Numbered from the stretch's first letter, positions 3,827 to 39,241 are shown. The stretch is DNA of 64,000 bases from a virus (IMGVR_UViG_3300007754_000008:921-64920), one strand, 5' to 3'. Numbers and translations are program-made. The notes: generated by a model from the letters alone, not told the origin.

Positions 3827-6800
3827 ATGGCAGGAATATTTTCACTTAGAAATTGGGTTATGAAACAACTCATGAAAACCGATAAATCCGGAATCATGAA
3901 AATACCTCCTAAAGGTAAAATTGATTTTGGTGAAATGCTTTTAAAAGAACAGTTATTTCAAAAAGGCATTAATCCAGGAATGATTAAAAATGAAAAACAA
4001 CTAGACAATATTATAAATACTCCCGTCGTTTCAAAAAGTGAAAGAGCTAAACCTAAAAAATCTGGAAAAGTTATTGAAGTAGATTTTGATAAAGGTAGAT
4101 GGAACAAAGCTAGTGGTGGAAGAACCGGTTTAAGTTATTTACTTGCAGAAGATACAAATGAAAGAATGCCTTATGCAGAAGGAAACGGCGTATATGATGA
4201 AGATGTAGCTAAGAAAAAATTTGGTGAAAGAGTAAGACGATTAATGGATGAAGGTTATGATTTTGCTGAAGCTGTTAAAGAAGCTATGAAAGAAGAAGGT
4301 TTTGCAGAAGGCGGCCGTGTTCCGTATTTTGAAGGAGCAATAGTTGATCCTGAAGGATATAATATTACTAGAAGAGAGATGGGAATACTTGCAAATGCAA
4401 ATCCAAGTATGAGAGAAATGATACGTGAATTTCTTACTAGCAGAAGAAAACATAAATTCGTTTATCCTGATAGAATCTTAGAGATGAAAGCTGGTAGAAG
4501 AACGGGTGAAGCATCAGGTGGCCGTGCAGGATTACTGGGTGAGAGACCGGGATATCAATTAGGTGGGGTTTTAAATATAGGATATCATGGAACAAGTCCT
4601 GCAAATTTAAGATCTATAGCAACGTCAGGATTTACAGGGGGTACAGTTCCAACATGGGCAGGGACAGGTAAAACATTTACAACACCAAATATAAATGTTG
4701 CTTCAACATATGGACCAAGACAAATCCCTATAGTTCAATCTGCTCAACATTTTAAACTTCCTGGAGGAGGAATCCCAGGTCAGACACTTACAGAGGCTTT
4801 TAAAAATATTGGTAAAACAAAATTTGGTTTTGAAACGGCACTTAAACCTGATCAAGCAACTAAAGGAATGACAGCTTTTGAAAGAATGAAGGTAAAATAC
4901 CCCCATTCTCAAACATTAAAAAGATTATTAGAAACTGGAACAACAGCAGTTACAAAACCTACTAATTGGTTAAAATTAGCAGGTATTCCACTTTCAGCTC
5001 TTACAGGAATATTATCTTCTACACCAGTAGGCAGTGCAGAAATGCCCGCATATGGCAGCGAAGAATATAAAGCTCTTATGGCAAAAGAAGCACTATTTAA
5101 GAAAAAACAAGAACAAGCAAATATTTTTAAAAAAATAAAAGAAAAACGATTAGCAGAAGAAGCAGCAGCGGCAGCGTCAAAAGCAAAATGGCAAAAGGAT
5201 TATTCTAATTGGAGAAGTCCTTCAGGACGTGACCATGAAAGCACAGCAGGGATTGGTAGTAAAGAATCTAAAAAAGGTCCGGCAGGAGGATCTATAGGAG
5301 CTAGTCGATTTAGAGCCAATGGTGGATTAATGATGGCAGACGGCGGTATCGCAGGCATGTTAGGTGAAAGAACAGGATATCAAAACGGCCTTCTTGCAAA
5401 TATTCCCCCTGAATATAGATTATATGCTGGTACAATGTTACCAGGAAATCAAACTGGAACAATTGATGAAAGTTATTTTAACCAAGATTTTAAAGATCAA
5501 GTTAAAGATCAAGTTTTAAGTAAAATGGATCGGGGTATGGAATTTGAAGGTTATAAGCATCCTAAAGCATTTCCTAGCGGAACTGTTAGGAAAGGACAAA
5601 TTTTTCCACGCGATTATGTAACAGAAAAAAATCCTTTTGGATATACTTCTCCACAATACGGAATAGGAAGAACTAATCCTACTGGTTATTCTTCTGTTTT
5701 TAATACATTAGGAACTTATGATTATAAATATAACATGCCTAATGCACCAGACTTTAGTAATGCCAGTATAGATATTACGGATAAATATGATTGGAATCCA
5801 AATTATGGAACTGTGGGTGATTTTACAGGTTATATAGGTCAAGGATATGGAAGAGAAGATGATGAAGATTATGTCAAAGGAACAGATGTTGATGCAAAAA
5901 TGTTAAAAGAATATGTGTTTAATCAAATTAAAAATAGAAAATTAAACGTAGGTGCTGGGCTAGAATTATTAGGAAATTATTTCGGACCAAGAGCTTCTGA
6001 AGGAAAAGGAAAAGATATCGAAATAAATATCCCTGTTAAAAAGAAAAAGAAATATGTATCACCTGCTTCTCCACATGGAAATGGCGGTGGCGGTGGCAGA
6101 AGACCAGATAACCCAGGTGGTTTTACAAATCCTGGTAAAGGAAGCTACGGACCACATATGGCATTAGGCGGTCGTGCAGGATTTGCAGAAGGCAAAGGAC
6201 CAAAAATGTCTAGAAGAAATTTTTTAAAAATAATGGGAGGCCTTGCAGCATTACCAGTTGTTGGTAAATTTTTTAAATGGGCAAAACCTCTTGCTAAGAC
6301 TGCTAAAGTTGCAGATCTAACTTCAGTCCCAATTAAAAATATTGAAGGCATGCCATCATGGTTCAAGCCCCTTGTAAATAGAGTTATTAAAGAAGGTAAA
6401 GAAGCTAAAGTAACAGAATATGATAGACTTATTACTCATACAGCTAAATTACCAGAATCCAAAACACCTATTTCTGTCAGTCAAGATTTAAACACAGGAG
6501 ATGTATGGGTTGATATTGGTGAACAGACTAAACATGGTTGGGCTGATGGTCATTATGGTCAACCGGTTAGATTAGAATATAAAGCAGCTGAAGATATAAT
6601 AAGTGGTCCTTCAGATGAACCATTTAAAGTTGGGGTAAGAGATCCACTCTTAAGAGAAAAAGTATCGATACATAAAGATTTAGTGAAGGACATAAAACCT
6701 GGCAAGGAGGGTCTACGTCTTAAACCAGGAAAAACCAAAGAAGAGTTTTGGATTGAAGAAGCAGAATTTACTGGAGGACATCCAGAAAACGTTAAGTTTG

Positions 6801-7012
6801 AAGAGTCAACTTTTGAAAAATTTGGTGATCATGGATCAAACTTTGATGAAGTAGAAAAGTTTGCAACAGGCAAAGTTAAAAAATCTAAACCAACTAAGAA
6901 AAGATCACAAACTGAATGGGAACAAGAAAAAGCACAGGCTGATGCTGAAGCATATTGGGAAGAGCATGGTGACTATGCATCCGGTGGTCTTGCTAGGTTG
7001 TTAGGAGAATAA
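3827..7012 (+). CDS. Modular (polyvalent) putative virion-internal protein with repeated AxGG linkers; ART-like, ColM-like and Tat-signal-bearing cassettes
   Basis: 1061 aa between terL and portal; linkers ASGGRTG, FAEGGRVPY, ASGGRAG, MADGGIAG, MALGGRAGF, YASGGLARLLGE; YHGTS motif; SRRNFLK. Confidence 0.75.
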   Translation: MAGIFSLRNWVMKQLMKTDKSGIMKIPPKGKIDFGEMLLKEQLFQKGINPGMIKNEKQLDNIINTPVVSKSERAKPKKSGKVIEVDFDKGRWNKASGGRTGLSYLLAEDTNERMPYAEGNGVYDEDVAKKKFGERVRRLMDEGYDFAEAVKEAMKEEGFAEGGRVPYFEGAIVDPEGYNITRREMGILANANPSMREMIREFLTSRRKHKFVYPDRILEMKAGRRTGEASGGRAGLLGERPGYQLGGVLNIGYHGTSPANLRSIATSGFTGGTVPTWAGTGKTFTTPNINVASTYGPRQIPIVQSAQHFKLPGGGIPGQTLTEAFKNIGKTKFGFETALKPDQATKGMTAFERMKVKYPHSQTLKRLLETGTTAVTKPTNWLKLAGIPLSALTGILSSTPVGSAEMPAYGSEEYKALMAKEALFKKKQEQANIFKKIKEKRLAEEAAAAASKAKWQKDYSNWRSPSGRDHESTAGIGSKESKKGPAGGSIGASRFRANGGLMMADGGIAGMLGERTGYQNGLLANIPPEYRLYAGTMLPGNQTGTIDESYFNQDFKDQVKDQVLSKMDRGMEFEGYKHPKAFPSGTVRKGQIFPRDYVTEKNPFGYTSPQYGIGRTNPTGYSSVFNTLGTYDYKYNMPNAPDFSNASIDITDKYDWNPNYGTVGDFTGYIGQGYGREDDEDYVKGTDVDAKMLKEYVFNQIKNRKLNVGAGLELLGNYFGPRASEGKGKDIEINIPVKKKKKYVSPASPHGNGGGGGRRPDNPGGFTNPGKGSYGPHMALGGRAGFAEGKGPKMSRRNFLKIMGGLAALPVVGKFFKWAKPLAKTAKVADLTSVPIKNIEGMPSWFKPLVNRVIKEGKEAKVTEYDRLITHTAKLPESKTPISVSQDLNTGDVWVDIGEQTKHGWADGHYGQPVRLEYKAAEDIISGPSDEPFKVGVRDPLLREKVSIHKDLVKDIKPGKEGLRLKPGKTKEEFWIEEAEFTGGHPENVKFEESTFEKFGDHGSNFDEVEKFATGKVKKSKPTKKRSQTEWEQEKAQADAEAYWEEHGDYASGGLARLLGE

Positions 7013-38321: not shown

Positions 38322-39241
38322 TGAGTAGAATATTTTACAGACCTATGTTTAGAACTGGAGGAAGCTCCAATGAAGGTATTACATCTGGATTAAGATCTGG
38401 ATATAATAGTGGAGGTCCAGCTAAACTTCAAAAAATTTTATCACTTATGGATTCGTATGCACCTGAACCAGAACTTCCTAAAAGTACAGCAGGTTCAGAT
38501 TTTTTAATTGATTTTGGTTTAGATTTAGCAAGCAGAAGTCCGCAAGGAAACATAATTCAAACTGCAGCTATGTCAGCAAGAGAACCTTTTGACAGAATGC
38601 GAAAAACAAGAATGACAGAGAAAGCTATGGAGTATCAACAAGGAGCAGACCGAAGAAAATTAATAGGGGATTTAGCTTCTGATTTGTTTGATGATAAAAC
38701 TTTAAGTGAGATAGATAGAAAAGTTGATCTATGGAAAAATTCTCATAAACCTTTAGAGGGTGAATCTGATAGCGATTATAATGATAGAGCTTACAAAGAA
38801 GTGTGGGAAACATTTGAATTTAGTAAGTCAGGACATGTAAGACCTGAAGAAAAATATCAAAATGAAATAGACATGCAAGTCAATATATTAGCTGACAGTA
38901 TTAGAAAACCTCCAGGTGAAGTAATTAGAAAAGTTGCTGAACATAAACATAAGATATCACAGAGTCTATATCCTGAATCTATACAAGCTCAAATTGTAAC
39001 TGGAAGAAACAGTTGGATAAATCATAGTCCAACGGCAGGAGACATAGATATCAGTGCTAAACCTGTAACAAATGACGAAGGTCAAATTACTATGTACAAA
39101 ATAAAAGATGAAATGATTCCATTCTGGAAAATGGATAATGGTGGTCTTACATATGATTATAAAACAGGTAATCTATATAGAATTAGAATTACAGAAACAG
39201 ATGCATTTTTTGAATTAGTACCGGATCCTGATAAAGAGTAG
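38321..39241 (+). CDS. Putative internal virion protein
   Basis: MSRIFYRPMFRTGG...GITSGL, GYNSGG; located in ejection block. Confidence 0.7.
   Translation: MSRIFYRPMFRTGGSSNEGITSGLRSGYNSGGPAKLQKILSLMDSYAPEPELPKSTAGSDFLIDFGLDLASRSPQGNIIQTAAMSAREPFDRMRKTRMTEKAMEYQQGADRRKLIGDLASDLFDDKTLSEIDRKVDLWKNSHKPLEGESDSDYNDRAYKEVWETFEFSKSGHVRPEEKYQNEIDMQVNILADSIRKPPGEVIRKVAEHKHKISQSLYPESIQAQIVTGRNSWINHSPTAGDIDISAKPVTNDEGQITMYKIKDEMIPFWKMDNGGLTYDYKTGNLYRIRITETDAFFELVPDPDKE

Follow-up and report, generated by a model that had tools for sequence, protein, structure and literature searches.

We found that a short glycine-rich peptide, built around a Gly-Gly (GG) pair, recurs in several large proteins of a virus genome (IMGVR_UViG_3300007754_000008) and that it is a real short linear motif of about 12 residues, clade-specific and conserved at the peptide level. 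The stretch analysed, hereafter the window, is 64,000 nucleotides long and runs from base 921 to the end of a virus record of 64,920 bases, judged complete by CheckV; it is nearly all of the genome of a 64.9-kb podophage, kin of Pelagibacter phage HTVC027P. Judged from homology with related proteins, the motif marks the borders of exchangeable cassettes, and its copies are predicted, from a structure model, to lie in flexible linkers between small helical modules. As to function, we tentatively favour the possibility that the motif is a multivalent encapsidation or docking tag, which would load the proteins that carry it into the capsid.

The window's portal protein is 66% identical to that of HTVC027P, whose host is Pelagibacter HTCC1062, 64% to that of phage 023Pt_psg01 and 52% to that of HTVC023P. 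The HTVC023P-type pelagiphages are presented in a preprint as the most abundant known marine viral group, with very few structural proteins identified (bioRxiv 10.1101/2019.12.14.876532). The motif-bearing genes of the window, three of which or pairs of which we call carriers A, B and C, are listed below with their copies of the motif; the internal form is termed class 1 and the C-terminal form class 2.

3827..7012, plus strand: carrier A, 1061 amino acids (aa), the first gene after the large terminase gene (TerL), a mosaic by BLASTP blocks
4106..4141, plus strand: class-1 copy, KASGGRTGLSYL
4301..4336, plus strand: degenerate copy at the end of a recurrent helical module, FAEGGRVPYFEG
4508..4555, plus strand: internal class-2 copy (GGRAGLLGE-RPGY) directly ahead of a cassette resembling ADP-ribosyltransferases (ART), EASGGRAGLLGERPGY
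4529..5326, plus strand: the ART-like cassette, aa 235-500 of carrier A, with the pattern YHGT ... STYG ... FGxE
5312..5380, plus strand: second internal class-2 copy (GGIAGMLGE-RTGY), ahead of the second unique cassette, RANGGLMMADGGIAGMLGERTGY
6158..6193, plus strand: class-1 copy that opens the conserved C-terminal cassette of carrier A, MALGGRAGFAEG
6203..6274, plus strand: twin-arginine-signal-like element, internal, aa 793-816 of carrier A, KMSRRNFLKIMGGLAALPVVGKFF
6974..7009, plus strand: C-terminal class-2 motif of carrier A, YASGGLARLLGE-stop
7012..9177, plus strand: carrier B, 721 aa, the second gene between TerL and the portal gene
7162-7197, plus strand: N-terminal class-1 copy of carrier B, MADGGRIGYADK
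9136-9174, plus strand: C-terminal copy of carrier B, RAHGGIMGLKKKW
13115..13892, plus strand: two small lysine-rich open reading frames (ORFs) with degenerate copies, RVGFKKGG at 13238-13261 and KKAGGGRAIYKSGG at 13809-13850
34398..37147, plus strand: carrier C, a 182-aa ORF and a 733-aa ORF
36521-36559 and 36671-36709: class-1 copies of carrier C, 50 aa apart, IKDGGRIGYAGGG and MASGGRAGYYAGG
36038-36055 and 36836-36853: YMAEGG, twice in carrier C
38321..39241, plus strand: 306-aa protein with an N-terminal RPMFRTGG (38339-38362)

Frequency and conservation of the motif

The motif was counted with a strict pattern, GG[RIL]x[GR][FYLM], and with the looser form [MFYK][AK].GG of the initial annotation, in the 64 ORFs of the window taken as genes (18,835 aa) and in 300 shuffles that preserved the composition of each protein. 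The strict pattern (GG[RIL].[GR][FYLM]) was observed 9 times; the shuffles averaged 0.60 and never exceeded 4, so that none of the 300 reached 9. Its narrower version GGR.G[FYL] occurred 6 times (shuffled mean, 0.07), A.GG[RIL] 11 times (shuffled mean, 2.31) and the loose form 24 times (shuffled mean, 5.15; 0/300). All nine strict instances fall in three proteins, encoded at 3827-7012 (1061 aa), 7012-9177 (721 aa) and 34946-37147 (733 aa). These patterns were composed after the data had been seen, which biases the within-window test, and the independent check is provided by the relatives. Every instance listed in the initial annotation was re-derived at its position. Several of these (KNSGG, FRTGG, RKGGKV, KMAGGG and RVGFKEG) are singly indistinguishable from chance, although some stand at positions conserved in relatives, RPMFRxGG among them.

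The carriers contain 8.5-12% glycine. The strict motif is absent from the two fibre-like proteins of the window, which have 31-32% glycine and 89 and 92 GG pairs, and glycine content alone therefore does not yield it. The prospect raised at the outset, that the motif is no more frequent than glycine content predicts, is thus contradicted both by the shuffles and by glycine-rich proteins that hold no copy.

Relatives were gathered as IMG/VR loci around homologues of the portal (80), of an ejection protein (9) and of the capsid protein (80). In 100 distinct GGR.G[FYLM] instances from related loci, the internal form has the consensus [KM]-A-[DEKS]-G-G-R-[IVA]-G-[FLY]-x-x-G-[GTS]; Ala at -2 is found in 74 and Gly at +8 in 88 of them, neither position having been part of the search. 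The arginine is encoded by AGA in 44 instances and by CGT in 44, and 97 of the 100 underlying 24-nucleotide strings are distinct. Since the codons vary while the residues stay constant, selection acts on the peptide and not on the DNA, and a DNA-level repeat or recombination site is ruled out by this codon diversity.

The C-terminal form reads [FY]-A-[SE]-G-G-[LI]-A-[RG]-[ML]-L-G-E-stop and very often closes the first gene after the terminase. It ends 29 of 102 ORFs upstream of the portal gene in relatives, many of these ORFs being truncated by contig ends, and 48 of 149 top environmental carriers. The second gene between TerL and portal often has A-G-G-G-I-A-G-I-R-[RK]-P-x-A-I-P-P near its C-terminal end, and proteins of the ejection block (34398-39241) carry short N-terminal GG leaders, RPMFRxGG and MxRQLxxGGGI, conserved across relatives. 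The GG pair lies 9-14 residues from the N-terminus in several ejection-module proteins and 7-10 residues from the C-terminus in carriers.

Distribution among genes and genomes

The motif is restricted to a particular set of genes. Across 159 IMG/VR loci, the homologues of TerL, portal, GroES, scaffold, p153, p193, the major capsid protein (MCP) and three more conserved proteins, which add up to 178,576 residues, contain no strict copy (for the MCP, 0 in 83 homologues), whereas the other ORFs, with 128,708 residues, contain 116. The initial annotation had not seen the motif in capsid or portal proteins of the window, and its observation extends to these conserved head and packaging homologues. 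The window's copies lie between TerL and portal, just 3' of the portal gene, and in the ejection-protein module. In 72 loci of relatives an ORF of 100 aa or more precedes the portal gene, and 52 of these loci have one strict copy or more; small basic ORFs after the portal gene of relatives have clear class-1 copies (e.g., in loci L008, L026, L046, L049, L054, L061, L065 and L066).

The motif is also borne by gp41, gp42, gp82 and gp84 of HTVC027P and by their counterparts in 023Pt_psg01, proteins that are otherwise barely alignable. The core of carrier B is similar to a 023Pt_psg01 protein (34% over 370 aa). The C-terminal domain of carrier C (aa about 638-712) is conserved in HTVC027P, 023Pt_psg01 and freshwater phage DSL-LC04; its two ORFs (34398-34946 and 34946-37147) overlap by one base, and a single ORF of 486-607 aa with the same ends takes their place in L093-L096. 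The N-terminus of the 38321..39241 protein recurs in HTVC027P gp84, in 023Pt_psg01 and in L089-L095. Among 50,697 phage records, only HTVC027P and 023Pt_psg01 matched an environmental carrier.

A 32-position profile of the motif, run against 1.84 billion representative proteins (clustered at 50% identity), gave 1,365 matches at E <= 0.001 and 172 at E <= 1e-10. The best 150 of the 1,365 have 3-10 matched stretches each. One of the top matches (P0136), a 57-aa unit in nine near-identical repeats that looks like a translated DNA repeat, was dropped as a false positive; the 149 kept have up to six motif copies per protein. A search with a single carrier returned at least 8,000 matches (90%-identity clusters) at E <= 1e-5.

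Cassette borders and linkers

Carrier A is made of several blocks: aa 1-85, a small helical module at 113-180, cassettes at 235-500 and 510-775, and a C-terminal cassette from about 770 to 1061. Its motif GG pairs are at residues 97, 231, 506, 781 and 1053, and in BLASTP comparisons with relatives the blocks of homology begin and end at motifs. Homology of the C-terminal cassette to 17 related proteins starts at aa 749-781. The helical module, with a motif after it, recurs in proteins P0108, P0114, P0118, P0119 and P0122, and the two cassettes behind the internal class-2 copies are without relatives among the 80 portal loci.

The exchange of cassettes can be followed in individual relatives. 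Locus L065 has the first and last blocks of carrier A, with the middle cassettes missing. In L075, an L045-type protein is joined to an L078 domain, the join (NKGGRVAYQEG) lying exactly where the L045 protein ends in NKGGLARMLGE-stop. Single-linkage clustering of inter-motif segments chained into one giant family and was used only for this comparison of L045, L075 and L078. Protein P0053 begins with the N-terminus of carrier C (aa 1-36) and continues as a carrier A cassette, the switch coming just after a GG; its residues 28-201 match carrier A at E 1e-26 and residues 362-427 at E 2e-18. P0061 likewise has the aa 235-500 cassette of carrier A behind the carrier C N-terminus. The swapping of cassettes at linkers, which had been proposed as a check on the motif, is thus seen in L065, L075 and P0053 and agrees with the BLASTP blocks.

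The gap between TerL and portal varies widely in content. It holds no gene in L043 and L077, in L044 a protein of 149 aa that has an internal copy and a terminal one and, at the other extreme, two genes of 878 and 1,074 aa in L052 (about 1,950 aa, or 5.9 kb). Being dispensable and hypervariable, this content fits accessory cargo and not core parts.

In the window, copies are spaced about 60-275 aa apart, as expected from the initial description of the intervening segments as domain-sized and unrelated to each other. This description suits environmental carriers less well: copies in the best 150 have a median spacing of 97.5 aa (lower quartile, 57 aa), and what lies between them is in many cases a small helical module, a few types of which recur. 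One such carrier, P0116, was modelled with AlphaFold2 (AF2). Its four copies have their GG pairs at 38, 99, 161 and 233, and the predicted local distance difference test score (pLDDT) of the model is below 50 at residues 36-50, 97-121, 156-174 and 228-303, with helices between them at block-mean pLDDT of 90-95. Pairing of copies within one chain, into a beta-sheet or solenoid, was rejected, all four copies being unstructured in this model.

Contents of the cassettes

The idea that the carriers are polyproteins of interchangeable effectors finds little support in domain searches, with Pfam almost empty across the window's carriers and those of relatives. Carriers A, B and C have no Pfam domain above threshold (sub-threshold TAT_signal and HTH_10 only) and no NCBIfam match, and carrier A has no PHROG match. 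Pfam found one TAT_signal among 78 motif-rich environmental proteins, nothing in 9 more, and nothing in 9 large TerL-portal ORFs of relatives. A precomputed match to PF27070.1 is recorded for three homologues of P0116 (P0328, P0331 and P0355); our local Pfam scan did not reproduce it. In HTVC027P gp42 (L001, 17209-19887), the stretch LEVDHFDKV...NLRVIPARINR resembles, by eye, an HNH-type nuclease motif.

The cassette at 4529-5326 recalls ADP-ribosyltransferases, a resemblance we treat as a lead only. It has 102 homologues, with H20, Y61 and E102 invariant in a 37-sequence alignment, and it also occurs as a stand-alone protein of about 260-300 aa that ends in a tail of the GG[ILR]…YRYGGF type. 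In the ESM Atlas its best score (0.83) was with unnamed clusters, ART-PolyVal ranking fifth (0.79), and in a profile search of chains in the Protein Data Bank (PDB) PARP10 appeared at E 0.28-0.33, below low-complexity matches; both are weak leads. An AF2 model of the cassette (37 rows) had a mean pLDDT of 47.7 and was unusable. The PDB chain search gave 0 matches for a profile of the carrier C type and 0 at E <= 0.01 for the capsid profile.

The conserved C-terminal cassette of carrier A includes the twin-arginine (Tat)-signal-like element KMSRRNFLKIMGGLAALPVVGKFF, which matches Pfam TAT_signal at E 0.00069 (19.9 bits, cut-off 22.7; E 1.3e-05 in one relative). The arrangement of a motif, 3-22 aa, then [RK]R.[FLM][LMI][KR] and a hydrophobic stretch is found in 21 proteins. 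The typical sequence, (M)SRRxFLK with a Gly/Ala-rich hydrophobic stretch, always comes just after a class-1 motif and is present in L019, L034, L054, L056, L059, L065 and L074, among others. A twin-arginine signal works only at an N-terminus, and this element, starting at residue 793 of 1061, is without the N-terminal position required. In the window there is an in-frame ATG at the element, with AAAGGA six bases upstream, and a separate product could be made from it; the Met is missing in several relatives.

A possible docking function

The way in which the motif is conserved is more in keeping with a peptide for recognition or docking than with a cut site. The conserved footprint of about 12 residues lies mostly after the GG pair and runs at least 9 residues past it, and the terminal form is kept to the last residue. 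Hydrophobic residues stand at +3 and +5, in the alternation expected for one side of a strand. Each carrier, including the smallest and the stand-alone cassette proteins, retains at least one copy, usually at its end. It is for these reasons, the long footprint after GG, the alternation, the terminal conservation and the copy in each carrier, that a docking tag is favoured.

In the mechanism that we propose, each copy would form a short strand between glycine hinges, with Ile or Val and the aromatic residue on one face, and would bind a repeated site in the procapsid interior. Candidate receptors would be the HK97-fold capsid protein, by its inner face, the scaffold and the portal/core. Any module that bears the tag would be loaded into the head and later exit with the DNA, and larger carriers would arise by in-frame fusion of genes that each end in the tag. 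Such fusion would account for the tags at cassette junctions and for the internal …LLGE/…MLGE copies ahead of added cassettes in carrier A. That the carriers lie inside the virion we infer from where their genes stand and from weak homology, and we also infer that the motif binds a partner.

Several points weigh against this function. We found no binding partner, and the main texts searched on this phage group gave no proteomic or structural data that place the carriers in the virion. HTVC023P (whole genome), DSL-LC04 (30 kb) and Roseobacter phage CRP-902 (24 kb) are without a clear motif, with vestiges only, such as a C-terminal GGGMARM, though they share the portal and the GroES-capsid module; since the head module is conserved in these relatives, there is no obvious tie between a conserved receptor and the motif. 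As the internal form is unlike the C-terminal one, their partners may differ as well. The short N-terminal GG leaders (RPMFRxGG and MxRQLxxGGGI) look like propeptides, and a protease unrecognisable from its sequence could be at work. Finally, the linker evidence comes from a model of the environmental relative P0116, a protein from outside the window.

A complex prediction of the MCP (30 rows) with the double-motif segment of carrier C (3 rows), run without controls, had a score of 0.10 (mark, 0.32) and counts neither way. Three ORFs are common to the three motif-bearing genomes and not to HTVC023P (14062-14313, 17778-18035 and 39250-43881); the first two showed nothing suggestive of a receptor or protease.

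Alternative explanations

The motif may instead be the recognition site of a maturation protease that cuts carriers into cassettes and perhaps trims terminal peptides, in which case it may also target the carriers before cleavage. The logic would be like that of head maturation in T4 or jumbo phages, or of viral proteases specific for GG. Its position at cassette boundaries and in predicted flexible linkers would suit such a role, as would the GG pairs near the N-termini of ejection-module proteins and near the C-termini of carriers, and a cut would expose the twin-arginine-like signal that follows a class-1 copy in the 21 proteins described above. The conservation itself, with about 12 residues kept mostly after GG and up to the last residue in the terminal form, is not what one usually sees at a cut site. 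T7- and P22-type podophages, moreover, are not known to need a head protease. We recognised no protease family in 53 of the 64 window ORFs (Pfam and/or PHROGs), the other 11 being short (83-137 aa), and none in NCBIfam scans of the carriers or in Pfam scans of 96 carrier proteins of relatives. Proteins p153 and p193, which occupy the usual place of the protease gene, gave no protease signal in Pfam or PHROGs, and p153 matched only unnamed viral clusters in the ESM Atlas and, among PDB sequences, only a ribosomal protein (E 0.62). PHROG matches of the MCP to 'protease' families align to profile positions 401-643/644 and 421-666/668, which are the capsid half of these fusion families; the earlier statement that no prohead protease is recognisable thus stands for the ORFs scanned. 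Ejection or internal proteins of other phages are described as processed by prohead proteases (PMC10052503, PMC5694885), P1 DdrB and T4 Alt being given as processed examples (PMC5512222). On balance we consider a cleavage site, the main rival to docking, unlikely.

Alternatively, the copies could act after ejection, pairing between subunits of a conduit across the host envelope or binding an envelope or periplasmic component of the host. The carriers are in and beside the ejection module, and they would be small helical modules strung on flexible strands; the commonest cassette has its hydrophobic twin-arginine-like segment behind the motif, as in membrane-active ejection proteins, and the C-terminal domain of carrier C is annotated as 'tail tape measure protein' in DSL-LC04. 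The AF2 model, however, has no pairing of copies within the molecule, the motif is present also in very small lysine-rich ORFs after the portal gene that resemble DNA-associated head proteins, and no host partner can be named. This, too, we regard as doubtful.

Docking and cleavage could also be combined, with an encapsidation tag that is at the same time the cut site of a protease unrecognisable from its sequence: tagged polyproteins made of interchangeable modules would be loaded and cut, and one fragment, starting with the twin-arginine signal, would after injection be exported to the periplasm by the Tat system of the host. We give this combination only a slight chance.

A direct contact with nucleic acid, in which Gly-Arg-aromatic copies act like RGG boxes and hold the proteins on packaged DNA, seems to us similarly improbable. 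It would make sense of the invariant Arg, the conserved aromatic or aliphatic residue and Gly, the lysines that often flank the motif, and the copies in small lysine-rich ORFs. The strict Ala at -2 and the beta-branched or small residue at +3 are not known features of RGG boxes, however, and the modules between motifs are slightly acidic (mean net charge, -0.033 per residue; 58% of 137 acidic).

It is very improbable that the motif is a chaperone handle, with copies that mimic the mobile loop of GroES or the IxI tail of small heat-shock proteins and recruit host GroEL or the phage Hsp20 for carrier solubility. The phage does encode GroES and Hsp20, and its GroES has KSKGGVLF at the place of the mobile loop, which loosely fits K-A-x-G-G-[RIL]-x-x-[FL]. 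The register, with Arg at +2 and Gly at +4, is unlike that of the GroES loop, and relatives that have no clear motif encode GroES just as well. We rejected a universal partnership with Hsp20, there being no match to it in the motif-bearing HTVC027P and 023Pt_psg01; of its 507 matching phage records, the 12 listed are mainly pelagimyophages and cyanophages.

That the motif is an artefact of composition or a DNA-level repeat, and the peptide without a role, has next to no probability: the carriers are rich in glycine and cassette exchange at the motif could use short DNA homology, but 0 of 300 shuffles, glycine-rich proteins without a strict copy, free codon variation and the 1,365 profile matches all stand against it.

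Comparison with known systems

Encapsulin shells, which have the HK97 fold, load cargo by short terminal targeting peptides, and in one Family 2B example a motif is described as repeated between two domains and at the very C-terminus (PMC8346489). The motif reported here resembles these peptides in being short and Gly-rich, with a few hydrophobic residues, and in its position at the C-terminus or between domains of unrelated proteins. It differs in consensus and in having up to six copies. The shell here is, moreover, a DNA-packaging phage head with portal, scaffold and tail genes, and the motif system therefore cannot be an encapsulin system.

In phage T4, the capsid targeting sequence of IPI-III and Alt is a short peptide that sends unrelated proteins into the head, from which they are injected; a similar role is proposed for the motif. 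The T4 signal is single, N-terminal and removed by the prohead protease gp21, whereas copies here are multiple, internal and C-terminal, and no protease was found in the ORFs scanned. T4 Alt is described as an ADP-ribosyltransferase delivered from the phage head (PMC5512222); an ART-like residue pattern is seen in one cassette of carrier A.

The same paper describes polyvalent proteins as large mosaics beside portal-terminase genes, with extensive domain shuffling, and proposes that they accompany the DNA both in packaging and in delivery (Iyer et al. 2017, PMC5512222). Carriers A and B are similarly mosaic and encoded between TerL and portal. Unlike polyvalent proteins, the carriers are without two or more recognisable effector or enzymatic domains (Pfam), and Pfam and PHROG scans found no MuF/portal fusion or embedded peptidase (MPTase) in them. 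The word 'linker' is absent from the main text of that paper, where no conserved linker motif is described.

The ejection module is like that of T7- or P22-type phages in its position after the tail genes, its very large last protein (1543 aa), its largely helical proteins and its PHROG 'DNA ejection protein'. It is unlike them in that a second and third carrier locus lie beside the portal gene, which is unusual. To our knowledge, no repeated linker motif is known in T7-like or P22-like ejection proteins. Lastly, the motif shares with adenovirus protease sites and double-glycine leaders a GG pair after a small or hydrophobic residue, at ends and between units. It is unlike such GG-processing systems in that the scanned ORFs include no C5, C39 or other peptidase, conservation is mostly downstream of GG and most copies are not N-terminal.

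Gene order and neighbouring genes

The other genes of the window that bear on the motif or its setting are as follows.

2346-3824: large terminase (TerL)
9304-11790, plus strand: portal protein (phrog_1216, E 2.7e-72), motif-free, used to collect relatives
12675-13892: small lysine-rich ORFs after the portal gene
14249-14701: GroES
from 14719: scaffold-like protein, followed by p153 and p193
16815-17726, plus strand: MCP, 303 aa (phrog_371), motif-free
3' of the MCP gene: adaptor and tail genes, then two fibre-like Gly proteins, 2OG-Fe(II) oxygenases and a 722-aa virion protein
34398-39241: second block of uncharacterised genes, including the PHROG 'DNA ejection protein'
37458..38321, plus strand: Gln/Ala/Gly-rich protein without the motif (phrog_4287 'DNA ejection protein', E 6.1e-08)
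after this block: 1543-aa protein that ends the ejection module, then an M15 endolysin, Hsp20 and replication genes
44461-44913: Hsp20

It is because of the phrog_4287 match at 37458..38321 that the block at 34398-39241 is read as an ejection module. The module of GroES, scaffold-like protein, p153, p193 and capsid protein (14249-17726) is kept in HTVC023P, DSL-LC04 and CRP-902 (L085, L086 and L087). The fibre-like proteins with 31-32% glycine (phrog_2295) are encoded at 24379-26295 and 27406-29187, and three 2OG-Fe(II) oxygenase genes are interleaved with them (26313-26891, 29278-29907 and 29904-30650), with a fourth elsewhere (57889-58569). The Hsp20 of the window is closest (66%) to that of pelagimyophage Mosig and, as noted, has no match in HTVC027P or 023Pt_psg01; this suggests an exchange of Hsp20 between unrelated pelagiphages.

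Significance

We have not found the motif described in print, so far as main texts go. A literature search with the motif strings returned unrelated papers only. The main texts of PMC9599517 and bioRxiv 2019.12.14.876532, whose supplements may hold annotation or proteomic tables, use neither 'protease' nor 'internal virion'; the word 'motif' is used once in the first, in an unrelated sense, and never in the second. The proteins gp41 and gp42 are unmentioned in PMC12753301, and of 751 papers matching a virion-proteome search, the 10 listed included none on pelagiphages.

The motif makes a great many unannotated proteins recognisable from sequence, in an abundant phage group whose structural genes are barely understood. 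If it is indeed a loading tag, it would account for the ability of a small podophage to package proteins that vary from one relative to the next, and it would mean that phages share the cargo-loading logic of encapsulins. Such a peptide would, in addition, be a simple means of loading foreign proteins into phage heads. HTVC027P and its SAR11 host are in culture, which makes these proposals directly testable.

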